Below, piece by piece: positions 22,268-55,996 of a stretch of 64,000 nucleotides of DNA. The position numbers and the translations under genes were made by a program. The stretch lies in NCBI GenBank assembly GCA_020057065.1, contig JAGVGM010000277.1, positions 1,794 to 65,793 of the forward strand. The letters are read 5' to 3'. This DNA comes from Thermodesulfovibrionia bacterium (lineage in GTDB: Bacteria > Nitrospirota > Thermodesulfovibrionia > UBA6902). The notes under the pieces are model-generated. The model saw nothing but the letters and a program-made list of their open reading frames with translations, did not search any database and was not told the origin of the DNA. Position 1 is the stretch's first letter. The number at the start of each line of letters is the position of its first letter.

Positions 22268-22347
22268 CCTGTATAATGCAGACATTGTTCGGTTGGTCTG
22301 GAAAGAATGTAGATAAGATATTATGAGTCAGGACAGCCTTAATGTTG

Positions 22348-22789
22348 CCCCCCCCTTTAGAAAAGGGGGGTAGGGGGGATTTGAAGACTTGTCAGGCAAC
22401 TATGCTTACTTACAATAAAAGATTAAAACCATTATCGAGAAGCCTAAGAAGCAATATGACTGATGCAGAGAGATTGCTGTGGTCAAAAATAAGAAGAAAG
22501 CAATTAAAAGGATTTCAATTTTACCGGCAGAAGGTTATTGGCAATTATATTGCTGATTTCTACTGCCCCGAATTAAAGCTGGTCATTGAAGTTGACGGCG
22601 GCCAACATTACAGTGCTGAAGGTAGGGAGAATGATCGTATGAGAGATGCTTACATGTCAGGAGCAGGGATAACTGTTGTAAGGTTTTCAGATAGAGATGT
22701 ATTGAAGGATCTCAAAGCTGTCCTGGAAGAAATATGGAAAAAATTATAATTATAAAATCCCCCTTCATCCCCCTTTTTCAAAGTGGGAG
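22348..22789 (+). mobile_element. Compact TIR-bounded unit carrying a DUF559 ORF (putative selfish/mobile element)
   Basis: Left arm 22348-22382 is CCCCCCCCTTTAGAAAAGGGGGGTAGGGGGGATTT. Right arm 22754-22789 is AAAATCCCCCTTCATCCCCCTTTTTCAAAGTGGGAG, whose reverse complement aligns with the left arm. The ORF starts 19 nt after the left arm and stops 4 nt before the right arm. Confidence 0.45.
22402..22749 (+). CDS. DUF559 endonuclease-domain protein (Vsr-like fold)
   Basis: ARSLRSNMTDAERLLWSKIRRKQLKGFQFYRQ..IADFYCPELKLVIEVDGGQHY. The ORF-track N-terminus (MLPPPLEKGGRGDL) is a translation of the palindrome, so ATG 22402 is preferred. Confidence 0.85.
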   Translation: MLTYNKRLKPLSRSLRSNMTDAERLLWSKIRRKQLKGFQFYRQKVIGNYIADFYCPELKLVIEVDGGQHYSAEGRENDRMRDAYMSGAGITVVRFSDRDVLKDLKAVLEEIWKKL

Positions 22790-33657: not shown

Positions 33658-35340
33658 ATGAAAAACAAAAAAGTTTTTATCATTGGTCTTGACGGACTGT
33701 CGTTCGAAATTCTTGATCAGGTAAGGCATAAATTTAACCTGATCAATATAAACCATATACTGGAGAGTGGGGCGTCAGGACATATGAAGTCGGTATTGCC
33801 GTATTCATCCGCGCCTAATTGGGCTTCTTTAAGCACCGGGGTCAATCCGGGGAAGCATGGATTTTACAGTTTTTACTTCCCCAGGGAAAATGCTTATGAG
33901 CATCAATTCCCTAATTCTACTCACATAAAATACAAGCGTGTCTGGGACCTGGTTGGAGAGTCGGGAAGAAAAGCGCTGGTAATTAATGTTCCCGGCACAT
34001 ATCCGCCCGATAAAATTAACGGTCATATGATTACGTGCATGCTGACGCCCGGGATAAACAGTGATTTCGGCTATCCTAATAACTTAGCCGATGAGATCAG
34101 AGAAAAGTTCCCTGACTATTCATTTGACATAAACTGGAAAGAATTTAAGGATGACAGAAAAGATCAGTTGGTGGATGCGCTCATCGGTTCGGCAAAAACA
34201 AGGAGGGATCTAATCAGGTATATGCTGGAAAAATACCCGGCGGATTTTAACATGATTGTCTTCACCGAGACAGACAGGCTTTTCCATTCAGCATTAAATT
34301 TGATCGATAAGAGACATCCGCTTTTTGATAAGGATGCTTCAGAAAAGAATATGGAAGGTATAGAAGAAATATTCAGGACTATAGATTCATTCATAGGGGA
34401 AGTTCTTACAAAGTACGCTGATAACTGTACTATTATCCTTATCTCAGATCACGGTTTTTCGCCGGCTTATAAAAAGGTCTACTTAAACAACTGGCTCTCG
34501 GAGCGCGGCCTTTTATCGATAAGGACAGAGGAAGCAGATAAGACGAAATTTTTTTTAAAGGCGGCTGTAAAAACTGTTTTTGGATTGTTTGGCATTACAG
34601 GTGAGAGAAGGATAAAGCTGCAGGACAAGTTGCTGCTCTTTCTGAGAGAGAGGAAAGGAATACCGATACTGGATAGTATCTCCAGGCCTCTTGCTAATAT
34701 AGCAGATTCTATGTCAAGGACCAACTGGGTGAAAACGAAAGCCTATTATTTGCAAGAGTGGGGGATCAGGATAAACTTGAAAGGCAGGGAGCCGCAGGGT
34801 ATTGTTGAGGAGAATGAGTATGAGCACCTTAGAGAAGAGATCATTCAGTCGATCATGAAGCTTGAAGACCCCGACAGTGGGAAGAGAATCATCAAGGAGG
34901 CTTTAAGGAGAGAAGATGTTTGTTCCGGCGAAGAATTTGCAAATGCGCCTGATATATTTTTGATCACTGAAGACTCACCCGGGTATGAGTTGACCTCCGC
35001 ACTGTCCTCAAAAAATATTTTTGACAAAATAGAAGGGAAGACAGGCGAGCACTCCTTGTACGGAATGTTTGCAATGAAAGGTGATAATGTTCAAAAAGGG
35101 TCGGTGGATAATATCTCAACGATCGACATCGTCCCCACTGTTTTATACGCATTTGGATTGCCGATACCTGATTATATCGACGGCAAGGTCATAACACAGA
35201 CCTTTACTGAAGAATTCCGGAAAAAGAATCAGGTGACCTATGGCGCTGATACTTCAAAAAAGGATGTTACTGAAGAAGAATTCAGCTCAGAGGATGAAGA
35301 AGCAATAAAAGACCGGCTAAAAGGGTTGGGATATTATTAG
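33658..35340 (+). CDS. Alkaline-phosphatase-superfamily protein (type I phosphodiesterase/nucleotide pyrophosphatase-like)
   Basis: VFIIGLDGLSFEILD, SSAPNWASLSTGVNPGKHG and ISDHGF. It is a paralog of 53237-54568. Confidence 0.75.
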   Translation: MKNKKVFIIGLDGLSFEILDQVRHKFNLININHILESGASGHMKSVLPYSSAPNWASLSTGVNPGKHGFYSFYFPRENAYEHQFPNSTHIKYKRVWDLVGESGRKALVINVPGTYPPDKINGHMITCMLTPGINSDFGYPNNLADEIREKFPDYSFDINWKEFKDDRKDQLVDALIGSAKTRRDLIRYMLEKYPADFNMIVFTETDRLFHSALNLIDKRHPLFDKDASEKNMEGIEEIFRTIDSFIGEVLTKYADNCTIILISDHGFSPAYKKVYLNNWLSERGLLSIRTEEADKTKFFLKAAVKTVFGLFGITGERRIKLQDKLLLFLRERKGIPILDSISRPLANIADSMSRTNWVKTKAYYLQEWGIRINLKGREPQGIVEENEYEHLREEIIQSIMKLEDPDSGKRIIKEALRREDVCSGEEFANAPDIFLITEDSPGYELTSALSSKNIFDKIEGKTGEHSLYGMFAMKGDNVQKGSVDNISTIDIVPTVLYAFGLPIPDYIDGKVITQTFTEEFRKKNQVTYGADTSKKDVTEEEFSSEDEEAIKDRLKGLGYY

Positions 35341-39565: not shown

Positions 39566-42349
39566 ATGACATCCAAAATAGCTAAATTCTTTCTTTTTAT
39601 TATTCTTGCATCTGCGACTTATACATACGCGGAAACCGTAAAGCTCAATGTGACCAGAGACGTATGGCTCTCAGCATATCCAGGTGAAGAGAACTTCAAT
39701 ATGGGCGTTTCGCCGAAGCTGAAGCTCAAGGGTATTCAGGAGATGGCGATACTGGATTTTGATCTTTCACAACTGAAAGGGAAGAAGATAGAAAGTGCCA
39801 GACTGTATATTTGTAATGCAGCCAAAAACAATAAGCTGAGAAGGATCGGGATATCTACGGTTGCTTCCGACTGGGTTGAAGGCAGTTCAAGAGATTATTC
39901 AATTGACAAAATCGGCAAAGGCGCTGCATTCCTTTACTCAAGCTATAAAGAAAAAAGATGGGCTGGAGAGGGTTCTGATCTGACCGATGTGACGATGGGC
40001 AGCGGAAACACCCGGCAGCATCATACAGAGTTGCGAAGGGAAAACGGCATGTGGTGGTCTGTTGACATTGACCCGGAATTGCTTTACGCCCTGATATTAA
40101 ACAAGTCCCATGGGCTTCTTGTGATGGATGAATCAGGTCAGACAATGGTCAATAATTTTATATATTCAAAAGAATCAAAAGACTCATTGCCATATCTTGA
40201 GGTCGCCTATTCAAAGGCCGGGACAAAGAAGCCGCAGAAGCTTGACGCCAAATTATTACCGTCGCCTGAAAATGCTCATATGGAGTCCGGCGCTTTGGTA
40301 TTGAGGGTTCCGATTAAAGAGGATATCTTTGCCTTTGATGTATTCATTAATGATAAGGAAGCTCCTCTATGGAGGATCCCAAAACCGGGTCCGGTCAATT
40401 CCGTTCAGGAAATAATAATAGACTGGCTCCCGCCTGAGAAAAAAACAGATATCAAAATAATGGCCGTAAATGAACTTGGTCAAAGATCAGAACCGGTGTC
40501 TGTGAGTGGTTATGCGTCAAAGGCATTGTCGAGGATTGCTATTCACAACACCCCCACCCCCCTTGATAGGGGGGAAGATTTAAGAAAGGCCACGCTTCTA
40601 AGGGTGTGGGCATTGCCTGATATTGTCAAGATAGACCCTGTCAGCGGTAATGTGTTGTCAGAGACAGTATCTTCAGGATTTGATCATGCAAATACGATAT
40701 GGACCGAGAGTAAAAAAGAGATAAATCTCGTTGCGTTAAGGGGAGAGGTCATAGGATTTCAGTTATGTATTGAATCGGGCAATAAACTATTTGATGAACT
40801 GGAAATTAAAATGCCGGAATTGGCAAGTAATAATAAAAAGCTGATATCTGCGAAGCAGTTTTCCATGTATCAGGTGCATTACCTGAAGGTAAAAGAAAAA
40901 TGGTATCCGGAGATAGCCATTCCCATGAAGGACGGCAAAATAATCATGAAGGCAGAACAAAGACCTGTAAAAGATCAAAAGAATCAATTGATATACATTG
41001 ATCTTTCCATTCCTTCCCAGACAGATGCAGGGCTTTACAAAGGGGATATTCTTGTTCTAGGAAATGGGATCGTTGAGGAGACGCTTCATATTGATCTGAA
41101 GGTGGCTGATGTATTAATGCCCAAAAAACTTTCATTTGTTCCCGAATTAAATATGTATAACGGACCGGATAAAGCCGGAACAGAGAGGTTTTATCAGGCA
41201 CACCAAATAGCGCGCGAACATCGGACCGTTATTAACAGGGTCCCGTATAATCAGAACGGGACGGTTCACAATGATATGATCCCGAAGATCTCATATTCAA
41301 ATGACGGAAAGGTTGAGATCGACTGGACAGATTATGATCGAAGATTAGGTCCTTTATTTGACGGCTCGGTATTTTCTGCCGGGGAAAGAAGAGGGATGCC
41401 TGTTGAAAAGTTCTATCTCCCTTTTTTTGAGAACTGGCCGGCTCAGTTAGCGCCGAATTATAATTATGGATATGAAGGAGCAAAAACTAAGGAAGCAATT
41501 TCAAAACATGCAATGGATGCCCCGCCGGTGAATGATGCATTCACGTCAAAGTACAGGGAAAATTTCATTGAAGTAGTTAAGAAATTTAAGAAACATTTTG
41601 AAGATAAAGGCTGGGATCAGCCCGAATTTCAATTCTATCTTAATAATAAGCCGCGCTGGAAAGGCTCCTCTTCATGGTGGGATCTGGATGAGCCTGTGTC
41701 GTATGATGACTGGATGGCCTTAAAGTTCTACGGATCTCTCTTTAAACAGGCAACAGTGGATACACCTTTAAAGTTTATTTTCAGAGCGGATATCTCAAGG
41801 CCCCGGTGGCAGCATGACTGGCTGAACGGGCTGTTGGACAGGATGTATGTGCAGGACGAGGCGTTTTATAATTACACGGACAAAGTGCGTCAAATGAAAA
41901 AGACGGGGAAGATCAATTATTCCGTCTACGGCTCACTTAATAACATTGAATCATCAAATCAAAATACCGTATTCTGGTGCGTCAGGTCTTTTGCAGAAGG
42001 CGCTGATGGAGTGTTGCCCTGGCAGAGCCTGGGCGGGGCAAAGGCCTTTACAATACCCGACAGGAACGCCCTGATCATTGATGCAAGGGAACAGCTGGAT
42101 ATTGACTGGGTTGTCAGCCTCCGTGTGAAGGCTTTGCGAAGAGGTCAGCAGGATGCAGAGCTGCTGGGCCTGATAGAGAAGAAGTACGGTTATAACCGGG
42201 AGCAGATCCGTGATCTTGTTAACAGGTATTTTGAGACAGTTAAGCTTTCAGGGAATAATGACGACATGAATACAACAATAGATACTGCCAGAATGGATAA
42301 TTTCAGAAAGATCCTGATTGAAATGCTGGAACATGAAAGAAACAGATAA
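39566..42349 (+). CDS. Secreted 927-aa protein: N-terminal DNRLRE-like domain and C-terminal DUF4091-like putative glycoside-hydrolase region
   Basis: Signal peptide MTSKIAKFFLFIILASATYTYA. AILDFDLSQLKGKKIESARLYICNA resembles the DNRLRE pattern. The C-terminal ...GADGVLPWQSLGG...VSLRVKALRRGQQDAELL resembles DUF4091. Domain names are from recollection. Confidence 0.6.
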   Translation: MTSKIAKFFLFIILASATYTYAETVKLNVTRDVWLSAYPGEENFNMGVSPKLKLKGIQEMAILDFDLSQLKGKKIESARLYICNAAKNNKLRRIGISTVASDWVEGSSRDYSIDKIGKGAAFLYSSYKEKRWAGEGSDLTDVTMGSGNTRQHHTELRRENGMWWSVDIDPELLYALILNKSHGLLVMDESGQTMVNNFIYSKESKDSLPYLEVAYSKAGTKKPQKLDAKLLPSPENAHMESGALVLRVPIKEDIFAFDVFINDKEAPLWRIPKPGPVNSVQEIIIDWLPPEKKTDIKIMAVNELGQRSEPVSVSGYASKALSRIAIHNTPTPLDRGEDLRKATLLRVWALPDIVKIDPVSGNVLSETVSSGFDHANTIWTESKKEINLVALRGEVIGFQLCIESGNKLFDELEIKMPELASNNKKLISAKQFSMYQVHYLKVKEKWYPEIAIPMKDGKIIMKAEQRPVKDQKNQLIYIDLSIPSQTDAGLYKGDILVLGNGIVEETLHIDLKVADVLMPKKLSFVPELNMYNGPDKAGTERFYQAHQIAREHRTVINRVPYNQNGTVHNDMIPKISYSNDGKVEIDWTDYDRRLGPLFDGSVFSAGERRGMPVEKFYLPFFENWPAQLAPNYNYGYEGAKTKEAISKHAMDAPPVNDAFTSKYRENFIEVVKKFKKHFEDKGWDQPEFQFYLNNKPRWKGSSSWWDLDEPVSYDDWMALKFYGSLFKQATVDTPLKFIFRADISRPRWQHDWLNGLLDRMYVQDEAFYNYTDKVRQMKKTGKINYSVYGSLNNIESSNQNTVFWCVRSFAEGADGVLPWQSLGGAKAFTIPDRNALIIDAREQLDIDWVVSLRVKALRRGQQDAELLGLIEKKYGYNREQIRDLVNRYFETVKLSGNNDDMNTTIDTARMDNFRKILIEMLEHERNR

Positions 42350-43166
42350 AATAAACATTACTTCAACAATATTATTCCTGTGTGCCATGGGATTCCTGTA
42401 CTGGAAAACTGTCCTTGGAATGGTCCACGACTGGTATATAGATGAGAACTACTCTCACGGATTCCTTATACCGGTAATATCGGGCTATTTTTACTGGCAG
42501 ATGAGGGATAGAGTAAGATCTATTGAAAAAACCCGGTCCGTTTCCGGTCTCTTTATATTGCTTTTCGGGATGAGCATATTTCTTGTCGGTTATCTTGCAG
42601 GTGAACAGTTTACAATGAGGTTTTCGATGCTTATTGTAGCGGCCGGCGCCATAGTATTTGCTTACGGAATGGAAATTTTTAAAGCAATATCGTTCCCTTT
42701 ACTCTACCTCATATTTATGATCCCTCTGCCATATATACTTTATGATTCGGTAGCATTTCCTTTAAAACTTCTTGTATCAAAAGTCTCGGTAGAGTTTTTA
42801 TCATTTATAGGGATCCTTGTTATGCGGGAAGGCAATATTATACATCTTGCCAGTACAACGCTTGAGGTGGCGGATGCATGCAGCGGCATCAGATCTATTA
42901 TATCCCTGCTTGCGTTATCAACAGCCATTGCTTATTTAACCCAAAAAGGATGGATCAAAAGAGTAATACTTATTGTTCTTGCGGTTCCAATCGCTGTATT
43001 CGTGAATTCTATCAGGGTCATTGTCACCGGTATTCTTGCAGAAAAATATGGCGCAGCGGCGGCAGAGGGTTTCTTTCATGAGTTTGCGGGCCTTGTGATA
43101 TTTGGCATTGCGATAGTAATGCTGATTTCATCGGCGGTCATTATGGGAAAGATGAATAGAAAATAA
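42333..43166 (+). CDS. xrtA: Exosortase (EpsH/XrtA-like)
   Basis: Polytopic membrane protein with catalytic-type motifs ADACSGIRS, VNSIRV and FFHEFAG. ATG 42333 overlaps the upstream stop (42347-42349) by 17 nt. Confidence 0.9.
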   Translation: MKETDKINITSTILFLCAMGFLYWKTVLGMVHDWYIDENYSHGFLIPVISGYFYWQMRDRVRSIEKTRSVSGLFILLFGMSIFLVGYLAGEQFTMRFSMLIVAAGAIVFAYGMEIFKAISFPLLYLIFMIPLPYILYDSVAFPLKLLVSKVSVEFLSFIGILVMREGNIIHLASTTLEVADACSGIRSIISLLALSTAIAYLTQKGWIKRVILIVLAVPIAVFVNSIRVIVTGILAEKYGAAAAEGFFHEFAGLVIFGIAIVMLISSAVIMGKMNRK

Positions 43167-43288: not shown

Positions 43289-43915
43289 ATGAATAAAAGA
43301 ATACTGATAGCAGCGGGCATCATATTGTTGTTTGCAATATATATAAGGACAGGCTCTTTCCATGAAGTGGTTCCTTTAAAGAAAGCACTGGATGACTTTC
43401 CGCTTGTATGGAAAGGATGGGAGGGCAATAAAAACTTTTTTGATGCGATTATACTTGACAGATTAAGGGCTGACGAATATATGTCGAGAGAATACGTTAA
43501 GGGAGCTGACAGGATTCAGCTGTATGTCGGTTATTACAGCTCACAAAAAGAAGGGGCCCAGATCCATTCCCCCAAGCATTGTTTGCCGGGAAGCGGGTGG
43601 TTTAAGGTTTATGAGAAAAATAAAATATTGGACATTGAAAATACAGATAAAATAAATTATATTGAAGCGTTATATCAAAAAGGCTCTGAAAAAAAGCTTT
43701 TCATATATTGGTATAAAATGAAGGACGTTTATATTACTAATGATTATATTTTAAAGTTGTATATGATCATCAACTCTTTAAAATACAGGAGGAACGATGC
43801 CGCTTTTTTAAGGTTTTCAACGCCGGTCACTAAAAATGTTGAAGATGCTGAGAATGTGATTGAAAGCGCCATGAGAGATCTTCTTCCGTTACTTAAGGAC
43901 CATTTGCCGGAATGA
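43289..43915 (+). CDS. epsI: EpsI-family exosortase-associated protein
   Basis: N-terminal TM, then LYVGYYSSQKEGAQIHSPKHCLPGSGW. Confidence 0.85.
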   Translation: MNKRILIAAGIILLFAIYIRTGSFHEVVPLKKALDDFPLVWKGWEGNKNFFDAIILDRLRADEYMSREYVKGADRIQLYVGYYSSQKEGAQIHSPKHCLPGSGWFKVYEKNKILDIENTDKINYIEALYQKGSEKKLFIYWYKMKDVYITNDYILKLYMIINSLKYRRNDAAFLRFSTPVTKNVEDAENVIESAMRDLLPLLKDHLPE

Positions 43916-43939: not shown

Positions 43940-44551
43940 ATGAAAGAAAATAATGTTATATGGGATGACAGGTATGTAAAGAGGGAGGAACGAAACCGTC
44001 TGAACAATCATAAAAGCGGTTTTGTCTTGCTCACCGGACTTTCAGCATCCGGAAAATCTACGATTGCCCATCACGTAGAGAGAGAACTTTTTGATGATGG
44101 TATTCATGCATATGTCCTTGACGGTGACAATATAAGACATGGCCTGAACAGTAATTTGACCTTTAGCAGGGAAGACAGAAAAGAAAACCTTAGAAGGATA
44201 GTTGAAGTGTCCAAACTTTTTGTAGATGCCGGGATTATCGTCTTCGGCGCTTTTATCTTCCCGTACTCAGAGGATAGAGAATATATAAAAAAGCGTTTTG
44301 AAGGTGATAACTTTCTTGAAATATATGTAAAGTGTTCTATTGAATTATGTGAAAAGCGTGATCCTAAGGGTCAATATCAAAAAGCAAGAGCAGGAATTAT
44401 AAAGAACTATACAGGTATTTCTTCTCCCTACGAAGAACCCCAAAACCCTGATCTTGTTATAGATACGGAAGTAGCCGATATTGAGAATTCAGTCCGGATG
44501 ATTACATATCTTCTTACAAAGAAAAAAATATTAGCTGTTGATAAAATTTAA
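43940..44551 (+). CDS. cysC: Adenylyl-sulfate (APS) kinase
   Basis: FVLLTGLSASGKSTIA, LDGDNIRHGLNSNLTFSREDRKENLRR and ISSPYEEP. Confidence 0.92.
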   Translation: MKENNVIWDDRYVKREERNRLNNHKSGFVLLTGLSASGKSTIAHHVERELFDDGIHAYVLDGDNIRHGLNSNLTFSREDRKENLRRIVEVSKLFVDAGIIVFGAFIFPYSEDREYIKKRFEGDNFLEIYVKCSIELCEKRDPKGQYQKARAGIIKNYTGISSPYEEPQNPDLVIDTEVADIENSVRMITYLLTKKKILAVDKI

Positions 44552-46932: not shown

Positions 46933-46948
46933 TGGCATATATATTGCT
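46933..46948 (+). promoter_or_regulatory. Sigma-54 (-24/-12) promoter of the first PEP-CTERM gene
   Basis: TGGCAT-ATATA-TTGCT has exact GG-N10-GC spacing and ends 70 nt before ATG 47019. Confidence 0.75.
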
Positions 46949-47018
46949 TTAAACAAATATAGAAAACAAAAAAAATAATTCAATATAAAATTGAAAATTA
47001 AAAAAGGAGGATGTAACA

Positions 47019-47654
47019 ATGAATAAAATAGTAAAAATCTTATTAGTCTTAGTAGCTGTAATAGGTATAATGGGAGTTCAGCCAGCTAATGCTGTTCCTA
47101 CCCTTACATTAACAAGTGGTGCATTTTCATTCACAATTACTGATGAAGGAATTGGGGATTTGACCACTGGTGCGGGTGCTATGACTTTTAGTGGCGCAGT
47201 TGGCGACTTTATTGTTAACGTATCAACAGGCATCACAAAGCCGGTTCTGGGTTCTGCGAGCATGCCTTGGATGGATCTTAATTCAGTTAATGTATCATCA
47301 AAAGCTGCCACATTAGAAATTTGGTTCGATGATTCAGGATTTACCTATAACGGTGGTTTGATAATGAACGTAGGCGGTACATTCCAGAACACAGCAACAT
47401 TCGAAACCCGTGTTAATGGAACAACGATCAGTTCCCTTATTTTAGGTCCTGGACCAGCTGCTGGTACAACTGGCGGTGCTGCGTCACTGACGTCCTCTGA
47501 CACGCTGACTTTATACACTAATATCAATCATTTAAAAGCTGGCGCTACAAGCTTTGACCAGGAAGTTGTAACACCTGAACCAAGTACATTATTGCTCCTG
47601 GGTTCGGGTCTGGTAGGCGCTGCATTCTACGCAAGACGCAGAAAAGTAAAATAG
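47019..47654 (+). CDS. PEP-CTERM sorting-domain secreted protein
   Basis: Signal peptide, and a C-terminal VTPEPSTLLLLGSGLVGAAFYARRRKVK. AAGGAGG precedes the start. Confidence 0.92.
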   Translation: MNKIVKILLVLVAVIGIMGVQPANAVPTLTLTSGAFSFTITDEGIGDLTTGAGAMTFSGAVGDFIVNVSTGITKPVLGSASMPWMDLNSVNVSSKAATLEIWFDDSGFTYNGGLIMNVGGTFQNTATFETRVNGTTISSLILGPGPAAGTTGGAASLTSSDTLTLYTNINHLKAGATSFDQEVVTPEPSTLLLLGSGLVGAAFYARRRKVK

Positions 47655-47678
47655 CTCATAAGTTAACAATATAAAAAA

Positions 47679-47712
47679 GGCGGTTGCAAATTTTTGCAAC
47701 CGCCTTTTTTTT
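47679..47712 (+). terminator. Rho-independent terminator
   Basis: GGCGGTTGCAAATTTTTGCAACCGCC followed by T8. Confidence 0.85.
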
Positions 47713-48011
47713 GGTGCACCCGGCACTGGCGGCAACTTGGCGATGGAATATTATAGTATAGACTTGGTAGAGAGAACCATCAGCTGAAGGCAAGCGTGTG
47801 TTCATTGTTTTTTTCAAAAGATTGAAGGCCTGAACCTGTCAGTGGGCAGGAACCGATATTATTTCAGAATTTAGCAGCTACATCGAGAGACGCCCTTTTA
47901 GTAGGAAAAAGTTTACAGTTAGTGTCGTAATAATTTACATAAATTAAGAAACAAAAAACTGTAAAAATAAAATAATGTTCTTTATCAATATGTTATTGTG
48001 TCTTATTGGGG

Positions 48012-48027
48012 TGGCATGTAAATTGCA
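48012..48027 (+). promoter_or_regulatory. Sigma-54 (-24/-12) promoter of the second PEP-CTERM gene
   Basis: TGGCAT-GTAAA-TTGCA ends 70 nt before ATG 48098. Confidence 0.75.
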
Positions 48028-48097
48028 TTTACATATAAACAGTAAAGCAAATAAAAATTCAATTATGAAATTGATAAATAAACAGGAGGATTAAAAA

Positions 48098-48757
48098 ATG
48101 AAAAATATAAGCAAGATTCTAATTATTGCGTTCGCACTATCTATACTGATTGGTATTCAATCTGTGTACGCAATCCCGACTCTTCAATTGAAGAGTGGTG
48201 CAACTACAAAGACGATTGCTGATGGGAGCATTTTAGACGCTAATTCTGAAGCAGGTGTAGTTACTTACATTGGTGCGGTTGGCATTTTCAATCTTAATGT
48301 AACAACAGGAGTTACCAAGCCAGCGCTTGGTTCTGCTACATTACCAGATTTGGATCTGAATTCAGTAGACCTAAACTCAAGTGGAGCCGGAACTCTTAAG
48401 ATATTATTTACTGACGACAATTTCGGTCCGTATACCGGTGGATTTCTATTCAATGTAGGCGGCACTACCAATAATAATACTGTTGGGTTCAAGGCTTATG
48501 TTGATTCTGTACAAATTGTAGATTTAGGGACATTTGGTGGCAGTGGCTCACAGGCATTTAGTGGCAGTGGTTCTGGCGGTAATGGAGTCTATTTAAATCC
48601 ATTTACATTAACCACTGAAGCTACGATCACAACTACTGGTAGATCCAATGTCAGTTTTGATGCAGAACTTGTTACACCGGAACCGAGCACAATAATGCTC
48701 TTAGGCTCAGGTTTAATTGGCGCTGCTATTTACGCAAGACGCAGAAAAATAAAATAG
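48098..48757 (+). CDS. PEP-CTERM sorting-domain secreted protein (paralog of 47019-47654)
   Basis: Signal peptide, and a C-terminal VTPEPSTIMLLGSGLIGAAIYARRRKIK. The core GAVG.F..NV.TG.TKP.LGSA is shared with the paralog. Confidence 0.92.
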   Translation: MKNISKILIIAFALSILIGIQSVYAIPTLQLKSGATTKTIADGSILDANSEAGVVTYIGAVGIFNLNVTTGVTKPALGSATLPDLDLNSVDLNSSGAGTLKILFTDDNFGPYTGGFLFNVGGTTNNNTVGFKAYVDSVQIVDLGTFGGSGSQAFSGSGSGGNGVYLNPFTLTTEATITTTGRSNVSFDAELVTPEPSTIMLLGSGLIGAAIYARRRKIK

Positions 48758-48861: not shown

Positions 48862-49566
48862 CTACAATTTAATATTTAGATCTTTTTGCAGAAAAGCCGG
48901 ATTCAGGCGGATAAATTTGTTCTTTTGAATGGTTATTTCTCCGGAATTTTTCCATTTATCCAAAATCCTTGTAACGGACTCCCGGGTCATTCCTGTCATT
49001 TCGGCAATATCCTGATGAGTAAGTTTGATGTTTAATGTTATCCCCTCTGAGGATTTTTTCCCATATTCATCTGAAAGCATAAGAAGCAGCATTTTTGTCC
49101 GTTGTGAAGCGTTATTGAAATTTAATAACTGTATTGTGTCCCAGGACTTACGCAGACGGGTACAAAATATTTTCAGCAAGCTTATCATTACTTTGTTTTG
49201 AGCTGATAAAATTGAATAGAAATCTTTTTTAGAAATGATGGCGACAAGGGAATCCTCTGTAGCTATTACAGAGGCCGGGGTTGTTTTGCCGTCGATCAAT
49301 GACATCTCCCCAAAGAACTCACCCGCTTGATGTACTGCAAGAATTATCTCTTTGCCGTCTTCTGTCATACGCACGGCTTTTACTTTGCCGAACAAAATAA
49401 TATACATGAATTCATTGGTATCTTCCTCGTAGAGGATTGTTTCGTGCTTTTTAAATTTTTTGACAATTAATTTTGTTATGAGATGTTCTATTTCCTTATC
49501 AGACAATGATGAGAAAAGCTGAATTTTCTTAAGAAATTCATTTTTATTATTAAAATTGTTTTGCAC
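48862..49566 (-). CDS. Crp/Fnr-family transcriptional regulator
   Basis: cNMP-binding domain (GEFFGEMSLIDG..TPASVIA) and a C-terminal HTH (LTHQDIAEMTGMTRESVTRIL). Confidence 0.88.
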   Translation of the reverse strand: MQNNFNNKNEFLKKIQLFSSLSDKEIEHLITKLIVKKFKKHETILYEEDTNEFMYIILFGKVKAVRMTEDGKEIILAVHQAGEFFGEMSLIDGKTTPASVIATEDSLVAIISKKDFYSILSAQNKVMISLLKIFCTRLRKSWDTIQLLNFNNASQRTKMLLLMLSDEYGKKSSEGITLNIKLTHQDIAEMTGMTRESVTRILDKWKNSGEITIQKNKFIRLNPAFLQKDLNIKL

Positions 49567-50057: not shown

Positions 50058-52127
50058 ATGATAACATTTATATTTTCAATAATTACAGCTATTGTTGCAA
50101 TTGTCATAGCTTTTGTAGTTTTTCTTAAGAGATACAACCGTCTTTCTCATATAGCGTTTTTTGTAAGCATGCTTTCGACAGCATTTGTGATCTTTGGGGA
50201 TTCAATGTGCATGCTTAATCCTGAATCTATAATTCTCTGGAAGAGATTTGTATTTATAGTTGAGGCGTTGATGGCCACTTCATGGCTTTTATTTGCCATG
50301 AGTTTTGCTCGTGCTGATTATTGGCATGTTGTTAGCAAGTTCTCCAAGCTTCTATTAATGTTATCCCCTCTTTTTGCATATTTTTTTATTGCTATACCGA
50401 TTGAAAATTTCTTTCTTTCTCCCGATTCCGAGTTCAGGAATGAAAAGATTCTTTTCTTGGGGAACACTGGATATGTATTCAACCTTCTGCTTCTTCTCTA
50501 TTCTGTTGTATCAATTATTAATTTAGAGACAACGTTGAGAAGTTCTTCTGGAGTTAACAAGTGGCAAATTAAATATACTGTTATGGGGGCAGGCGGCATT
50601 ATTGCATTTAATATTTTTTATTATAGCTACGCTCTCCTTTATCGTTCAATTAACATGGACTTATTACCGGTAAGGGATGGAATTGTTCTTGTTTCAAATA
50701 TGGTTATAGGATTTTCAATTCTCAGGCACAAGGCGATGGATGTTGAAGTTGCTATATCACGAAATATATTGTTCAGATCGCTAAGTATTTTTATTGTAGG
50801 ATTTTACCTGCTTGGACTTGGGTTAATAGGCGAAGGGATGAGGTATTTGGGTCCGAGAGCTGGTACGAATATTACGATCTTTCTGGGTTTCATTGGCGCT
50901 ATCGTGGTCCTGACAATTATTCTTTCAGAACAATTGCGAAGGAAAGCAATAGTTTTTATTCACAAGAATTTTTATAGTTACAAGTATGATTACAGGGAAC
51001 AGTGGCTGAGTTTTACACAGCGTATTTCTTTAAAAAACGATTTTGATGAATTATTGGGATCGATAGCTGAAGGTTTTAAGGAAGCAATAGGTTCAACAGG
51101 AGCGGCAATATGGTTGAAGGGCAGGGATAATAAGGAATATGTATGTGTTAAGGTTTTGGAAACAAATATTGTTAAGGCTGCTCCGGGCAGCAGGCTTATA
51201 GAATTTCTTCAGAATAAAAAATGGATCTTAAATGTCCATGATAATGAATGTAAAACAGTTGTGTCTGACAATAAGGAATTTATCGAAAAGACCGGAGCAT
51301 CTCTTATAGTTCCTCTTATTCATATTGACAGGCTTATTGGTTTTATTATTCTCAGGGAGAGCCTTGCCGAGAATGAATATAATTATGAGGACTTTGATTT
51401 GCTTAAGACGCTGGCCAAACAGGCGTCCCTGGCAATTGTGAATACACAGCTTGCTGATGAGCTGATAGAGGCAAAAGAAATGGAGGCGATGGGAAGATTA
51501 TCATCGTTCATAATACATGATCTCAAGAATTCAGCCTCTATGCTTTCAATGATAGCACAAAATTCAGAAGAGCATATTGATAATCCGGATTTCCAGAGAG
51601 ATGCGATGCGGGCGGTATCTAATACCTCAGAAAAAATCAGGGGTATTATAGATAAATTGAAAAACCTGCCGATTAAAGCAGAACTGCACCTCAAATATTA
51701 TGATCTGTGTGAGTGCGTTAAGTCAGCTATTGCTCAGGTTGGTTTAAATGGAAAAGCGAATTTGTCTTATAAAGAAATTGAAAACGTAAGTACAAAATTC
51801 GATAATGAAGAACTTTCAAAGGTTATTATTAATCTCATAATGAATGCATTTGATGCAACCGGGATGAAGGGCGAAATAAAAATATCCACCGGCACTGAAA
51901 ATGGCGCTGCTTTCATCAGAGTTTCTGATAATGGATGCGGGATGTCAACTGATTTTATAGATAGAAATTTATTCAGGCCGTTCCAAACTACAAAGAAAAA
52001 AGGGCTTGGAATAGGTCTTTATCAATGTAAGACAATTATAGAGGCCCATTCTGGTAGAATGTTAGTAGAGAGTCAAGAGGGTAGGGGAACTGAATTTATA
52101 ATTTACTTGCCCATAATTTCGCATTGA
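50058..52127 (+). CDS. prsK: PEP-CTERM system sensor histidine kinase (PrsK-like)
   Basis: Multi-TM N-terminus, a GAF-like middle region, H-box SSFIIHDLKNS, and HATPase motifs NLIMNAFDA, DNGCGM and GLGIGLYQCK. Confidence 0.88.
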   Translation: MITFIFSIITAIVAIVIAFVVFLKRYNRLSHIAFFVSMLSTAFVIFGDSMCMLNPESIILWKRFVFIVEALMATSWLLFAMSFARADYWHVVSKFSKLLLMLSPLFAYFFIAIPIENFFLSPDSEFRNEKILFLGNTGYVFNLLLLLYSVVSIINLETTLRSSSGVNKWQIKYTVMGAGGIIAFNIFYYSYALLYRSINMDLLPVRDGIVLVSNMVIGFSILRHKAMDVEVAISRNILFRSLSIFIVGFYLLGLGLIGEGMRYLGPRAGTNITIFLGFIGAIVVLTIILSEQLRRKAIVFIHKNFYSYKYDYREQWLSFTQRISLKNDFDELLGSIAEGFKEAIGSTGAAIWLKGRDNKEYVCVKVLETNIVKAAPGSRLIEFLQNKKWILNVHDNECKTVVSDNKEFIEKTGASLIVPLIHIDRLIGFIILRESLAENEYNYEDFDLLKTLAKQASLAIVNTQLADELIEAKEMEAMGRLSSFIIHDLKNSASMLSMIAQNSEEHIDNPDFQRDAMRAVSNTSEKIRGIIDKLKNLPIKAELHLKYYDLCECVKSAIAQVGLNGKANLSYKEIENVSTKFDNEELSKVIINLIMNAFDATGMKGEIKISTGTENGAAFIRVSDNGCGMSTDFIDRNLFRPFQTTKKKGLGIGLYQCKTIIEAHSGRMLVESQEGRGTEFIIYLPIISH

Positions 52128-52223
52128 TCAAAATGCAGAAAGTGTAAAATATCATATAAAGTATTTTAAGGCTTCTACCGAATAATGACTAATGGTAAAA
52201 GCAAAAACAACTATTGATCAAGA

Positions 52224-52356
52224 GAGGCTTTTGCAAAAGTCTTAGTTTGTCATTCCCGAGGTCTTTATCGGGAATCCAGTATTCTTTAAAAACAGTGCCT
52301 TCTGGATTCCCGTTTTCACGGGAATGACAGATAAGCTATACTTTTGCAAGAGCCTC
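52224..52356. repeat. Nested palindrome, family 2 (GTCATTCCCG...CGGGAATGAC type)
   Basis: The outer arms are GAGGCTTTTGCAAAAG / CTTTTGCAAGAGCCTC. The inner parts are TGTCATTCCCGAGGTCTTTATCGGGAATCCAG and CTGGATTCCCGTTTTCACGGGAATGACA. Confidence 0.85.
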
Positions 52357-52412
52357 AAGTTTGAATAAAATTTATTATTTACCAATAACCAACCAACAAA
52401 AAAGGAGAAACA

Positions 52413-53237
52413 ATGGATATAAAAGATAGAGAAATGCTAATGGCGATGAACATTGAAGACAAGATCACTCAGTCCAAGAAGGTCATAAAAGAGGCTATAG
52501 AGAAATTCGGGACGGAGAAATTAGCGGTAGCATGGACCGGAGGCAAGGACAGCACAACAATGACATGGTTGTTTAGAGAGGCATGTAAGGATCTGGGAGC
52601 GCCGATGCCTAAAATTATGTTCATTGATGAGGGATATGTATTTGAAGAGATCTGGGATATTGTAAATAAACTGAAAAAAGAATGGGATCTTAATGTGGTA
52701 ATTTCAAAGAATACGGATGTAAGTGATAAGGCAAAGAATATCGGGGACATGATCAAGGTAAACAGTCTTGATGAGCGCAACAGAAGTGAAATTGTTAAGC
52801 TTGGTTTTGAAGGAGAGGAATTTCCGTTTGAGCCTGAATCTTTTGTCGGCAATCATTTAATGAAGACTGTTGCAATGAATGTCTTTCTGGAGGATAATGA
52901 TATACAGGCCCTTGCAACCGCTATCAGATGGGATGAACAGACAGCACGCATTGCCGAAACATATTTCAGCCCGAGAAGCAACCCGCCGCATACAAGGATA
53001 CAGCCCATTTTACATTTTAAGGAGAGGGATATCTGGAACTTTATTTTTGAATATAAGGTTCCTTTCTGTGTTTTATACAACGAGGGGTACCGGTCGCTCG
53101 GTGCAAAAGGTTCTACAGTTAAATTGTCTGACATCCCGGCATGGGAGCAGGATCTCGAAAATACGACTGAAAGGGCCGGACGCGGACAAAATAAGGAAGA
53201 AGTCATGGGTAAGCTGAGAGATTTGGGTTATATGTAA
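52413..53237 (+). CDS. CysD-like PP-loop protein (PAPS reductase/ATP sulfurylase small-subunit family)
   Basis: PP-loop AVAWTGGKDSTT, YRSLGA, and a C-terminal TERAGRGQNKEEVMGKLRDLGYM resembling the CysD tail (ER.GR..D....ME..K..GYF). There is no CysH-type ECGLH. Confidence 0.7.
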   Translation: MDIKDREMLMAMNIEDKITQSKKVIKEAIEKFGTEKLAVAWTGGKDSTTMTWLFREACKDLGAPMPKIMFIDEGYVFEEIWDIVNKLKKEWDLNVVISKNTDVSDKAKNIGDMIKVNSLDERNRSEIVKLGFEGEEFPFEPESFVGNHLMKTVAMNVFLEDNDIQALATAIRWDEQTARIAETYFSPRSNPPHTRIQPILHFKERDIWNFIFEYKVPFCVLYNEGYRSLGAKGSTVKLSDIPAWEQDLENTTERAGRGQNKEEVMGKLRDLGYM

Positions 53238-54568
53238 TGTTTAATTTTCTCAAAAAAAAATTAAAAGAGAGCAAAGTTATTGTGCTCGGCATTGACGGGG
53301 TGCCCTGCAGTTTGTTGAAACGGTTTATCAGGCAAGGGCTGATGCCGAATCTTGAGAGCCTTGTTCAAAAGGGTACGCTTACTGACATGACTGCATCGAT
53401 TCCTGATGTTTCATCCACTTCATGGACAACGTTTATGACAGGTGTAAATCCGGGAAGGCACGGTATATATGGCTTTATGGAACTGGAAAAGGGAACATAT
53501 CAGTGGCGGTTTCCAAATTCTAATGATGTTAAAAGCGAGACCTTATGGGAGATAGCCGGCAAATACAATAAAAAAAGTATAGTGATTAACGTGCCGTCTA
53601 CTTACCCTGCAAAGGCATTAAACGGAATACTCACAGCAGGTTTTGTTGCGCTGGATCTGAAAAAAGCAACTTATCCTGAATCGGCTTATGAATATCTGAA
53701 AAGCATTGGATACAGGATGGATGTCGATACAAAAAAGGCTCAGCAATCATTAGAAGCCCTGGCTGCGGACATTGAAGAGACGTTTGTTATAAGGAAGAAC
53801 GCTATACTGCATTTTCTGGACAAGCAGGAGTGGGATCTTTTTATCGGGGTTATAACTGAGACCGATCGTTTACACCACTATCTTTGGATCGCCCTTGAAG
53901 ACGAGAGACATCCATTGCATAATTTCTTTCTTGATTTTTACAGAAAATTGGATATATTTATTGGTGAGATTTATAAGAGAGCTAGTGATGATATTTCACT
54001 CGTTATGTTGTCTGACCATGGCGCCACAGCAATAAAACAGGAAATATATTTAAATGCCTGGCTAAAGGAGAAAGGATATCTGAAATTCAAAAAAGAAAAT
54101 CCGGATACATTTGATGATATGCATGATGAAAGTAAAGTCTTTGTTCTTGATCCTGCAAGATTCTATATTCATTCCAGGAGAAAGTATCCTCGGGGCAATG
54201 TTGATGAAAATGAGTATGATGTCATAAGGCAAAAGCTCAAAGAAGATCTTTTGTCTTTGACCGTTCAGGGGGAAAAAGTCATAAAGACCGTATTGTTTAA
54301 AGAGGAGTTGTATCATGGTAATTTATACGATGAGGCCCCTGACCTTGTTGCAGTATCCTTTGAAGGTTATGATTTAAAGGGTTCGATCAATAAGTCTCAA
54401 ATATCAGGTAAGGGTTTTCTTACAGGTGGACATACAAGAGAAGATGCTTTCTTATATATTAACAGGAAGATAAATTCAACAAATATTAATATAGTAGATA
54501 TTGGCCCTACTATAATGTCGTTTCTTAAAATTGAAGAAAGCACTTTTGACGGAAAAATATTAATTTAA
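53237..54568 (+). CDS. Alkaline-phosphatase-superfamily protein (nucleotide pyrophosphatase/phosphodiesterase-like)
   Basis: VIVLGIDGVPCSLL, SSTSWTTFMTGVNPGRHG and LSDHG. TAATG overlap with the CysD-like gene. Confidence 0.75.
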   Translation: MFNFLKKKLKESKVIVLGIDGVPCSLLKRFIRQGLMPNLESLVQKGTLTDMTASIPDVSSTSWTTFMTGVNPGRHGIYGFMELEKGTYQWRFPNSNDVKSETLWEIAGKYNKKSIVINVPSTYPAKALNGILTAGFVALDLKKATYPESAYEYLKSIGYRMDVDTKKAQQSLEALAADIEETFVIRKNAILHFLDKQEWDLFIGVITETDRLHHYLWIALEDERHPLHNFFLDFYRKLDIFIGEIYKRASDDISLVMLSDHGATAIKQEIYLNAWLKEKGYLKFKKENPDTFDDMHDESKVFVLDPARFYIHSRRKYPRGNVDENEYDVIRQKLKEDLLSLTVQGEKVIKTVLFKEELYHGNLYDEAPDLVAVSFEGYDLKGSINKSQISGKGFLTGGHTREDAFLYINRKINSTNINIVDIGPTIMSFLKIEESTFDGKILI

Positions 54569-54604: not shown

Positions 54605-55996
54605 ATGAAACCATTATTGATGATCGAAGACAACCCTGACATACAGACACAGATGAAGTGGGGCTTTAACAAAGAGTATGATATTGTCCTGGCTTCAGAC
54701 AGAATTACAGCCCTTAAGTTATTTAAAAAGAAACATATTCCTGTTGTCACACTCGATTTAGGACTTCCCCCTGATGAGAATGATGCCAGCGAGGGGCTGT
54801 TATGTCTTCGTGAAATATTACTTGAGGCTCCACAGACCAAGGTAATTATAGTAACAGGTAATGATGACAGGGAGAACGCCCTTAAGGCTATTCATTTAGG
54901 CGCCTATGATTACTATCTAAAACCTGTAAAAATCGCTGAACTTAATGCAATTATTCAACGGGCTTACTATCTTTATGAGATAGAAAATGAAAATAGTAAA
55001 TTGCATATAATGTTAGAGCATGAGGTCGGATACGCAGGTATGATAGGTCAGAGTCAGGAAATGCAGAAAATATTTGATACTATTCATAAGGTCGCTTCGA
55101 CCGATGCAACAATATTAATTACCGGAGAAAGCGGTACGGGCAAAGAACTGGTTGCACAGGCTATTCATGAGAAGAGCTTAAGAAAAAAGGGTCCGTTTAT
55201 AGCGATTAATTGCGGTGCGATACCTGAGACCCTTCTCGAATCTGAGCTTTTTGGTCATGAAAAGGGCGCCTTTACAGGCGCCTATGCCCAGCAGAATGGC
55301 AAATTTGAATATGCGGACAAAGGAACCCTTTTTCTTGATGAGATTGCTGAAATGTCTCCGAGTCTTCAGGCCAAACTTTTAAGATTCCTGCAGGAAAGAA
55401 AGATTCAGCGGGTCGGCGGCAGAAATGATATAGAAATTAATACACGGGTTATTGCTGCGACAAATATTGACTTGACCGCTGCAATGAAAGAAGGTGGATT
55501 TCGTGAAGATCTTTTTTACAGGATAAGTGTTATTTCAATTAATGTACCGCCTTTAAAAGAAAGAGGGAATGATATACGCCTGCTTGCTAATGCATTTCTT
55601 GAAAGATATAAGGTAATGTTCAAAAAGAAGATCAAGGGATTCAGCAATAAAGCGCTTGAAGCAATTGAGAACTATGCCTGGCCCGGCAATGTACGGGAAC
55701 TTGAAAACAAACTGCAGAAAGCAGTCATTACAGCAGACTCTAACATAATAGAACCCTACCATTTGGGTTTGGAAGAACAATCGGAGATAGACAGAGAGAA
55801 TCTGAAGAAAAGATATGAGGGTGTCACTTTAAAAGAGGCCCGTAAAAAACTTGAAAAGGATCTGATCGCAAGTGTGGTTAAAAGGCACAATGGGAATATA
55901 AAAAGGGCATCCGAAGAATTGGGTGTCAGCAGGCCAACATTGTATGATCTGATCGACAAATATAAACTTCCTATTAAGGACGAATTGAAGGATTAG
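54605..55996 (+). CDS. prsR: Sigma-54-dependent response regulator (PrsR-like, NtrC family)
   Basis: Receiver domain (LDLGLPPD), AAA+ domain (GESGTGKE, ESELFGHEKGAFTGA), and a C-terminal Fis-type HTH (ASEELGVSRPTLYDLI). Confidence 0.92.
   Translation: MKPLLMIEDNPDIQTQMKWGFNKEYDIVLASDRITALKLFKKKHIPVVTLDLGLPPDENDASEGLLCLREILLEAPQTKVIIVTGNDDRENALKAIHLGAYDYYLKPVKIAELNAIIQRAYYLYEIENENSKLHIMLEHEVGYAGMIGQSQEMQKIFDTIHKVASTDATILITGESGTGKELVAQAIHEKSLRKKGPFIAINCGAIPETLLESELFGHEKGAFTGAYAQQNGKFEYADKGTLFLDEIAEMSPSLQAKLLRFLQERKIQRVGGRNDIEINTRVIAATNIDLTAAMKEGGFREDLFYRISVISINVPPLKERGNDIRLLANAFLERYKVMFKKKIKGFSNKALEAIENYAWPGNVRELENKLQKAVITADSNIIEPYHLGLEEQSEIDRENLKKRYEGVTLKEARKKLEKDLIASVVKRHNGNIKRASEELGVSRPTLYDLIDKYKLPIKDELKD

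Follow-up and report, generated by a model that had tools for sequence, protein, structure and literature searches.

To our knowledge, two routes of biological sulfate activation have been described, one that uses the ATP sulfurylase Sat and one that uses the GTP-driven CysDN complex. The locus examined here contains a relative of CysD in a different genetic setting. It lies in a 64,000-nucleotide stretch of contig JAGVGM010000277.1 from a Thermodesulfovibrionia bacterium (Nitrospirota), referred to below as the window, and consists of two genes, for a 274-residue PP-loop protein and a 443-residue enzyme of the alkaline phosphatase (AlkP) superfamily, that are found between prsK and prsR, the kinase and response regulator genes of the XrtA/PEP-CTERM system. 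The PP-loop protein is a member of a large, uncharacterized sister clade of CysD. With a probability of roughly 0.5, the two proteins form a module, independent of the GTPase CysN, that would handle activated sulfate for the sulfation of an exopolysaccharide. All of the evidence is computational, and it demonstrates how the locus is built, which motifs are present, that the family is sister to CysD, that it is paired and fused with AlkP-type enzymes, and that the context is one of sulfation. In the literature, no account was found of this PP-loop family, its association with AlkP-type enzymes, or the C-terminal tail described below. Throughout, L, G, and C numbers denote loci, genomes, and contigs.

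Two genes separate prsK from prsR

In the PEP-CTERM system, prsK and prsR occur in tandem in 12 of 13 genomes (Haft et al. 2006, PMC1569441), which agrees with the statement in an initial annotation of this DNA that the two are normally neighbors and makes the insertion seen here unusual. From the open reading frame (ORF) map and the sequence, four co-directional genes are present in a row, and a regulator gene diverges from prsK:

48862-49566, − strand: Crp/Fnr-type regulator, divergent from prsK (PF00027 and PF13545)
50058-52127, + strand: prsK, XrtA/PEP-CTERM histidine kinase with seven-transmembrane, GAF, and HATPase regions (TIGR02916, 537 bits against a cut-off of 300)
52128-52412: 285-bp spacer between prsK and the PP-loop gene, with a sigma-70-like site and a GGAG Shine-Dalgarno sequence (consensus matches only)
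52413-53237, + strand: PP-loop protein of 274 residues, CysD-sister family (PF01507, 95.7 bits)
53235-53239, + strand: TAATG stop/start overlap of the PP-loop and AlkP genes (direct sequence reading)
53237-54568, + strand: AlkP-superfamily enzyme of 443 residues, nucleotide pyrophosphatase/phosphodiesterase (NPP)/PhnA branch (PF01663, 169.6 bits)
54605-55996, + strand: prsR, sigma-54-dependent PEP-CTERM-box response regulator (TIGR02915, 628 bits against a cut-off of 503)

The Pfam domains of PrsK are HisKA_7TM, GAF, and HATPase_c. The initial annotation had placed in this gap two genes joined by a TAATG overlap, the first for a PP-loop protein and the second for a PF01663-like AlkP-superfamily enzyme, and each of these points is borne out by the ORF calls, the sequence, and the Pfam scores listed above. 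The junction reads ggt tat atg TAATG ttt, with a single A common to the stop and start codons, and an overlap of 1 or 4 nucleotides is also observed in the relatives L006, L008, L009, L010, L012, L014, and L034. The AlkP gene is followed by prsR after a gap of 36 bp. The spacer downstream of prsK, at 285 bp, is longer than expected within an operon. It contains a candidate sigma-70-like site at 52343-52371 and a GGAG Shine-Dalgarno sequence ahead of the PP-loop ATG, both as consensus matches only, and the former could serve as a promoter of the pair and prsR. A promoter and terminator scan from prsK to prsR gave no clear signal beyond consensus matches. By pattern search, no sigma-54 box is found upstream of the pair; such boxes are present only at the two PEP-CTERM genes described below.

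This arrangement recurs in related genomes. A prsK gene lies directly upstream of the PP-loop gene in 11 Nitrospirota loci, in 8 of which prsR lies downstream, and the AlkP gene is present in 5 of the 11 (L008, L009, L012, L014, and L020). Homologues of the Crp/Fnr-type regulator lie no more than three genes away from the PP-loop gene, usually at position −2, in 11 related loci, such that the conserved block in Nitrospirota is crp, prsK, PP-loop, (AlkP), prsR. Thus, in this phylum the PP-loop gene is the constant occupant of the prsK-prsR gap and the AlkP gene is optional. Outside Nitrospirota, the PP-loop/AlkP pair is found without PrsK/PrsR.

The PP-loop protein falls in a clade sister to CysD

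Family alignments show invariant motifs along the whole PP-loop protein: TGGKDS (residues 42-47), K151, RWDE...R (172-179), and GYRSLG (225-230), followed near the C-terminus by ER.GR (253-257) and the tail KE..M..LR.LGYM (261-274). The TGGKDS motif aligns with SIGKDS of CysD (PDB ID: 1ZUN, chain A). An intact GKDS loop is common to this family, CysD, and FMN adenylyltransferase (FMNAT), whereas CysH is degenerate and has SSFGIQ at that position. The Lys residue of the ..LMKT.. segment, the RWDE...R loop, and the ER.GR motif are shared with CysD and moss APR-B; the Lys and two Arg residues are presumably the sulfate contacts in the structure of the P. aeruginosa adenylyl-sulfate (APS) reductase. 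The end of the protein, TERAGRGQNKEEVMGKLRDLGYM, is comparable to both the tail of E. coli CysD and that of a CysNC-linked CysD (AERSGRAQDKE...LRKNGYM). To place the family, a profile of 12 diverse members was searched against the PDB. The best match was CysD (1zun_A, 92.9 bits), followed by human FAD synthase (90.4 bits) and phosphoadenosine phosphosulfate (PAPS) reductases (~65 bits). The CysD-like C-terminus noticed in the initial annotation is therefore genuine: 1zun_A is the best structural match of the profile, and the tail aligns with CysD ...SERQGR...KKRQGYF. In a maximum-likelihood tree, 48 family members are sister to a CysD clade (clade support 97/89) that comprises E. coli CysD together with two CysDs linked to CysNC and two CysD-like proteins linked to AlkP genes. 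CysH is remote from both groups.

By annotation standards, the PP-loop protein is not a CysD because it scores between 51 and 80 bits against curated cut-offs of 195 to 413 bits (TIGR02039, 51.2 against 396.6; NF003587, 80.4 against 195; NF009214, 51.2 against 413). Membership in CysD proper was rejected on these cut-offs; in the tree, the protein likewise falls outside the CysD clade. Assignment as a PAPS or APS reductase that yields sulfite, an identity considered in the initial annotation, was likewise rejected. This assignment would agree with the Pfam name of PF01507, with the database name "phosphoadenosine phosphosulfate reductase family protein", and with the fact that the genome contains exactly one PF01507 gene, the one described here. 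Yet the family alignments contain no invariant Cys residue, which excludes reductase chemistry. There is neither a C-terminal ECGLH nor an Fe-S Cys cluster, the protein ends in LGYM where E. coli CysH ends in KRECGLHEG, the canonical PP-loop is unlike that of CysH, and CysH is distant in the tree. A reductase is thus a very improbable reading.

The relationship to FMNAT requires closer consideration. In a single-sequence search of the PDB, human FAD synthase is the top match (eukaryote-type FAD synthases, E = 5e-13), and in the profile search it nearly ties with CysD. These matches could indicate a sulfur-independent, FMNAT-like adenylyltransferase that forms ADP-X from ATP and a phosphate monoester, with the AlkP enzyme placing phospho-X on the polysaccharide in the manner of LtaS or EptA. 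AlkP-superfamily enzymes with a Thr or Ser nucleophile are classical phospho-group transferases, and epimerase and glycosyltransferase genes are neighbors in archaeal and candidate phyla radiation (CPR) loci. In contrast, the profile match to FAD synthase is limited to residues 15-98 and 167-243; the ER.GR motif and tail, which are common to CysD and APS reductases, lie beyond its end. This reading also leaves the Sat, cysC, arylsulfotransferase (ASST)-like, and sulfotransferase context described below unexplained. A role as the FAD synthase of the cell itself was considered and is weakened by the presence of the FAD synthetase RibF in the genome, by which FAD synthesis is already covered. We consider an FMNAT-like function quite unlikely. 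The AlphaFold2 model of the PP-loop protein (predicted local distance difference test, pLDDT, of 91; ~65 in the tail) resembles FMNAT, APS reductase, PAPS reductase, and CysD at similar template modeling (TM) scores in Foldseek, with values of 0.6-0.65 for the FMNAT fold.

The AlkP-superfamily partner has a complete bimetallo core

The 443-residue partner matches PF01663 far above the gathering threshold (169.6 against 23 bits). All residues of the bimetallo core are present in invariant alignment columns (D20, the S59/S60 nucleophile, D210, H214, D260, H261, and H399), and Ser60 occupies the alignment position of the nucleophilic Thr in the phosphonoacetate hydrolase PhnA. No signal peptide is found in the partner, which places it in the cytoplasm. 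An AlphaFold2 model (pLDDT of 93) retrieves PhnA and NPP1/4/5 in Foldseek at TM scores of 0.58-0.71 and 14-18% identity. Judged from its sequence, the partner is a competent enzyme of the phosphoryl/sulfuryl-transfer type. The LGY tail of the PP-loop protein is absent from the partner and from 120 of 120 AlkP-partner homologues.

The window is an exopolysaccharide and sulfation locus

Together with prsK and prsR, the window contains the following features:

9-13992, + strand: core XrtA/PEP-CTERM exopolysaccharide genes (NCBIfam equivalogs, all above cut-off)
24764-25546, + strand: first PAPS-type sulfotransferase (PF13469, 81 bits)
31378-32673, + strand: cytoplasmic "sulfatase"-family protein in which Thr replaces the formylglycine Cys, RTPESFPALLSG (PF00884 and SGSH_C)
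32692-33633, + strand: second PAPS-type sulfotransferase (PF13469, 126 bits)
33658-35340, + strand: second PF01663 enzyme, 560 residues, a paralogue of the AlkP partner (138.7 bits)
42318-43166: xrtA (PF09721 at 258.8 bits and PF11984 at 166 bits, quoted jointly for xrtA and the epsI-type gene)
43289-43915: epsI-type DUF3485 gene
43940-44551, + strand: cysC (APS kinase), directly after xrtA and the epsI-type gene (PF01583, 211.5 bits)
46933-46948 and 48012-48027: TGGCAT-N5-TTGC sigma-54 promoters of PEP-CTERM genes (pattern search)
47019-47654 and 48098-48757 (span 46933-48757), + strand: PEP-CTERM substrate genes (PF07589)

The core genes at 9-13992 encode PrsT, a priming glycosyltransferase, an export protein, a chain-length determinant, a tyrosine kinase, an outer-membrane protein, an ATPase, a deacetylase, a FemAB-like protein, and a family 2 glycosyltransferase (TIGR02917, 03013, 03027, 03007, 03018, 03016, 03015, 03006, and 03019). 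The search for TGGCAT-N5-TTGC gave 2 matches where 0.27 were expected, and the two PEP-CTERM genes behind them are presumed targets of PrsR. Equivalog scores, the XrtA locus, and sigma-54 promoters before the PEP-CTERM genes agree in identifying a PrsK/PrsR PEP-CTERM system. The window is a complete XrtA/PEP-CTERM exopolysaccharide locus and a sulfation locus. The exopolysaccharide of this Nitrospirota sulfate reducer is probably sulfated because two sulfotransferases and an APS kinase, the latter directly after xrtA and the epsI-type gene, are encoded here. These features, which the initial annotation did not mention, render an association of the pair with activated sulfate far more plausible. 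The Thr-type "sulfatase" at 31378-32673 is, by BLAST, homologous (30-33% identity) to the −1 neighbor of distant PP-loop genes. An ORF resembling a DUF559 endonuclease (22342-22749, 119 bits) sits amid the exopolysaccharide biosynthesis genes and looks like an inserted selfish element.

Sulfate activation elsewhere in the genome

Absence of Sat and CysN from the 64-kb window, as stated in the initial annotation, was confirmed, and the search was extended to the whole assembly (4.16 Mb in 377 contigs). Genome-wide, no CysN reaches its cut-off (best score, 106 against 336 bits) and no CysD is matched at E ≤ 1e-30. On contig C89 (C89:2877-11615), a Sat gene (confirmed by PF01747) is followed by ORFs of the size of aprB, aprA, and qmoABC, with the aprBA-qmoABC assignment made from ORF size and N-terminal sequence. 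This gene order suggests an organism that reduces sulfate by the dissimilatory route and has APS in abundance. Of the two genes for which the initial annotation had advised a genome check, cysN is thus absent, whereas sat is present in a putative sat-aprBA-qmoABC operon. The genome further contains two strong cysC matches and one weaker kinase-like match, and at least three sulfotransferases. No equivalog of the phosphatase CysQ is found genome-wide (best score, 93 against 229 bits); paralogues of the inositol monophosphatase (IMPase) family are present below the cut-off.

The family is linked to AlkP-type enzymes and sulfur genes

The PP-loop family is large: 3405 matches were obtained in a word-indexed search, 1698 representatives of 50%-identity clusters in an exhaustive search, and 389 confirmed loci in a genome scan. 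Its members are from uncultured Bacteria and Archaea throughout and range over Nitrospirota, Desulfobacterota, Planctomycetota, Chloroflexota, Spirochaetota, DPANN and Asgard archaea, and CPR. In 45 of 81 loci, a PF01663- or PF00884-type AlkP gene occurs no more than 7 kb from the PP-loop gene, and the two frequently overlap. Natural fusions of 700-850 residues are also observed, in which a PF01663 or Thr-type PF00884 domain is N-terminal and the PP-loop domain C-terminal. The initial annotation had suggested that co-occurrence of the gene pair be followed across genomes. The AlkP vicinity and the fusions bear out such a linkage, but in Nitrospira-type relatives the partner is missing. In the Planctomycetota genome G049, two CysD-clade genes (L112, G049:C203; L113, G049:C151) each adjoin a PF01663 partner homologue. 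In the stretches examined no CysN is found beside them, and neither Sat nor cysC was detected in G049. These two loci show the arrangement of CysD with an AlkP enzyme and no adjacent CysN that the initial annotation had imagined.

Family members about 50% identical to the window protein occur in a recurrent cytoplasmic cassette composed of Sat (PF01747 and PUA_2; 14 loci), the Thr-type "sulfatase" (17 loci), the PP-loop protein, and an arylsulfotransferase-like β-propeller (25 loci). The window pair differs from this cassette in that its partner is of the PF01663 rather than the PF00884 type and Sat is encoded elsewhere, in the dissimilatory operon. A cysC gene adjoins the PP-loop gene in L050 and L052. 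In a Hydrothermarchaeota genome (G038:C57:1-2777), Sat, CysC, and an AlkP-partner homologue are consecutive, an order that connects the partner family with APS/PAPS metabolism even apart from the PP-loop gene; partner homologues stand beside cysC in G038, G044, and G046. At least one sulfur-related or AlkP gene of these kinds is present in 64 of the 81 loci. Five PP-loop genomes have a strong cysC and no detectable Sat or CysD, and DPANN and CPR genomes keep the PP-loop and AlkP genes with no Sat, CysD, or CysC detected. Sat and CysD are both absent from 14 of 50 PP-loop genomes, those being incomplete metagenome-assembled genomes (MAGs). In locus L098 (G042:C57:2000-11000), four tail-bearing PF01663b-type enzymes of 554-570 residues are arranged in tandem.

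These neighborhoods bear on two further explanations. The first is a nucleic-acid modification or anti-phage module that combines a PAPS-reductase domain, as in DndC or BrxP, with a PglZ-like AlkP domain. Type 4 BREX systems pair a PAPS-reductase-domain protein with the AlkP-superfamily protein PglZ, and this domain combination resembles the pair. A BrxP/PglZ or Dnd defense system was rejected because neither protein has a PADLOC match and no defense-island context is seen; the neighborhoods belong to exopolysaccharide and sulfur metabolism. The family is highly conserved (70-96% identity across many metagenomes), unlike defense genes. We hold this explanation to be highly implausible. The second is that the pair cleans up sulfonucleotides. 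PAP (3′-phosphoadenosine 5′-phosphate) is a toxic by-product of sulfotransferases. The NPP-like enzyme would hydrolyze PAP or excess APS and PAPS, and the PP-loop protein would only bind them as a specificity or regulatory subunit. Such a role would suit a genome in which two or more cysC genes and three or more sulfotransferases are found but no CysQ equivalog, the placement of partner homologues next to cysC in the three genomes just named, the activity of NPP-type enzymes, to which the fold match points, on nucleotide phosphodiesters and anhydrides, and the supply of APS by Sat. It fits poorly with the intact GKDS loop, which characterizes enzymes cleaving ATP into AMP and pyrophosphate (PPi) rather than proteins that only bind (P)APS, and which CysH has lost. 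In addition, the IMPase-family paralogues could serve as PAP phosphatases, and in DPANN and CPR the pair occurs without cysC or Sat, hence where no PAP would be made. Clean-up is accordingly an unlikely role, although one to which we give some weight.

A C-terminal tail is shared among functionally distinct proteins

All 120 close homologues of the PP-loop protein, and essentially all full-length representatives, end in ...LGY(M/F/L/W). The tail is also present in the CysDs that were examined (E. coli, P. syringae, G045, and the CysNC-linked proteins of G016 and G024). To identify other carriers, 5197 ORFs of at least 100 residues from the genome of the window were scanned for an acidic stretch followed by L(K/R)xLGY(M/L/Y)-COOH. 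This extended motif occurs in only four ORFs: the PP-loop protein, the Thr-type "sulfatase" at 31378-32673, whose C-terminus is a CysD-type tail (...EEVKAKLKALGYL), the second PF01663 enzyme at 33658-35340 (...EEAIKDRLKGLGYY), and a sulfotransferase (C266:6505-7257) immediately upstream of the second cysC. In other genomes, the tail is found in 18 of 18 full-length relatives (530-605 residues) of the second PF01663 enzyme. For the C266 sulfotransferase, 62 of 81 homologues of at least 220 residues terminate in GY(L/M/F/I), and SY and NY variants occur in the remainder. Only 1 of 39 homologues shorter than 220 residues matches the tail, and those of 190-207 residues that were sampled stop at the catalytic core. 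The presence of the tail in CysD-type, AlkP-type, and sulfotransferase proteins and in the putative regulators described next marks it as a portable C-terminal module, which could act as a docking peptide for a sulfation complex.

In three archaeal loci (DPANN and Heimdallarchaeota MAGs), a ribbon-helix-helix (RHH)-like protein (weak RelB-like match) of 71-77 residues with an LGYL tail is encoded directly upstream of the AlkP-PP-loop genes:

L035:22-255: small tail-bearing RHH-like protein
L036:2242-2466: small tail-bearing RHH-like protein
L040:5999-6214: small tail-bearing RHH-like protein

This placement suggests that in archaea the tail also couples a putative transcription factor to the enzyme pair. 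It would also fit a regulatory "trigger enzyme", a PP-loop protein that senses sulfate, APS, or ATP and modulates PrsK/PrsR, maybe via the tail, as would the location of the gene between prsK and prsR in 11 Nitrospirota loci whether or not the AlkP gene is there. No PrsK/PrsR is nearby in about 70 of the 81 loci, however, and the invariance of all catalytic motifs argues for an enzyme. The regulatory role, which is not exclusive of catalysis, is given a low probability.

A more far-reaching interpretation is that the invariant Tyr of the tail is a covalent carrier on a swinging arm, as Tyr-O-sulfate (an aryl sulfate) or Tyr-O-AMP. The tail of CysH bears a cysteine that forms an S-sulfo intermediate, a precedent for a carrier-arm tail, and enzymes of the NPP-like, arylsulfatase-like, and ASST-like classes have aryl phosphodiesters and aryl sulfates as substrates. 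Loading of the tail would fall to the CysD-like enzyme, and the proteins with the same tail, namely the second PF01663 enzyme and the Thr-type "sulfatase" of the window, the sulfotransferase subfamily, and the small archaeal RHH-like proteins, would deliver, receive, or report the activated group. We regard this idea as speculative and unlikely.

A proposed function for the pair

In the favored reading, the two genes would form a two-enzyme unit for APS-type sulfonucleotides that operates without the CysN GTPase. Using an intact ATP-pyrophosphatase loop, a conserved Lys, and the arginines of ER.GR, the PP-loop protein would make or hold APS from ATP and sulfate. The NPP/PhnA-like partner, with its Ser nucleophile and two metal sites, would act on a product of this reaction, most likely by accepting the sulfuryl or adenylyl group of APS or, alternatively, by cleaving PPi or PAP. 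Removal or channeling of the product would then provide the driving force in place of GTP hydrolysis. The unit would serve the adjacent XrtA/PEP-CTERM locus, which with cysC and two sulfotransferases is predicted to make a sulfated exopolysaccharide. If the pair is transcribed with prsR, the capacity for activated sulfate would be expected to rise with the regulator of the PEP-CTERM regulon.

Several observations weigh against this proposal. Nitrospira-type relatives keep prsK-PP-loop-prsR without the AlkP gene, and no orthologue of the partner was found elsewhere in those genomes, only distant paralogues of ~630 residues. The partner is therefore not obligatory, which weakens the idea in the initial annotation that it provides the thermodynamic pull. 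In 14 of 81 loci a Sat gene lies no farther than 7 kb from the PP-loop gene, in 12 of them within three genes, which speaks against the PP-loop protein simply being "the" ATP sulfurylase; a second such enzyme beside Sat looks redundant, and the family may bind APS rather than make it. In the genome of the window, Sat is present as well, on C89 only, such that a sat gene elsewhere, which the initial annotation had named as counting against its proposal should it fully account for sulfate activation, does, taken to the letter, exist. The absences of Sat and CysD noted above are weak evidence because they concern MAGs, many of them incomplete. As for the PP-loop protein itself, it fails every curated CysD model, a branch of ~3 substitutions per site parts its family from the CysD clade, the profile score of human FAD synthase (90.4 bits) nearly equals that of CysD, and the comparison of predicted folds, although it confirms the superfamilies of both proteins, fails to separate CysD, CysH, and FMNAT. 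Because Sat lies near the gene in 14 loci and the partner is optional, confidence in the proposal is not above about 0.5. The idea of sulfate activation by a CysD-like protein with a phosphodiesterase, as the initial annotation framed it, thus gains from the sister relation to CysD, the AlkP linkage, and the sulfur context, and loses from the presence of Sat, the dispensable partner, and the unreached cut-offs.

Comparison with known systems

The family described here is related to CysD, large, and phylogenetically broad, and it is linked or fused to phosphodiesterase- or sulfatase-like enzymes and never to a GTPase. If it activates or relays sulfate, it would represent a third solution to the unfavorable energetics of APS formation and possibly a PAPS-independent route to sulfated glycans. 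Such a function would have implications for the construction or degradation of sulfated polymers by uncultured microbes of sediment and groundwater, and for the way a sulfate reducer channels sulfate away from respiration and into a sulfated biofilm matrix under the control of PrsK/PrsR. The shared tail offers a concrete handle on how these enzymes cooperate. If it were a carrier, it would constitute a protein-borne, PAPS-independent sulfuryl relay and would give the tail of canonical CysD a role.

Of the described proteins, CysD (E. coli b2752; the catalytic subunit of P. syringae CysDN, PDB ID: 1ZUN) is the most similar to the PP-loop protein. The two share the PF01507 fold, the (S/T)xGKDS loop, the LMKT-type Lys, the RxDE...R loop, the ER.GR motif, and the ...(K/R)xxGY(F/M)-COOH tail, and are sisters in the tree. 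In contrast to CysD, the PP-loop protein lacks an internal insertion of ~40 residues and scores far under the CysD cut-offs, and while CysD works with the CysN GTPase encoded beside it, the PP-loop protein is paired or fused with AlkP enzymes in a genome without CysN. FMNAT (PDB IDs: 8RON, 3G6K, and 2WSI) is alike in fold, in the NGGKD PP-loop, and in the (L/I)Y..GY.SLG motif. By analogy, its transfer of an adenylyl group from ATP to an oxyanion is also the chemistry proposed for the PP-loop protein. The match ends before the ER.GR motif and tail, however, and the genomic context is one of sulfur rather than flavin, with RibF present. The reductases CysH and APR (PDB IDs: 2O8V, 2GOY, and 4BWV) have the same fold, and in 4BWV the Lys and ER.GR-type arginines align; a flexible, functionally important C-terminal tail may be a further likeness. 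Unlike these reductases, the PP-loop protein has neither the ECGLH Cys nor Fe-S cysteines, and its PP-loop is intact. For the partner, the closest systems are the NPP and PhnA enzymes (Xac NPP, PDB ID: 2GSN; ENPP1/4/5; PhnA, PDB IDs: 1EI6 and 3SZY), which share its fold (TM scores of 0.58-0.71) and the full set of bimetallo ligands. The partner differs from them in its low identity (14-18%), its cytoplasmic location, its Ser rather than Thr nucleophile, and its genomic dedication to a CysD-like protein. All of the folds are thus known, and what would be new, at the roughly even odds given to the favored reading, is CysD-type sulfate activation with a different partner. Something categorically new would be at hand only if the tail turned out to carry the activated group covalently, for which the chance is small.

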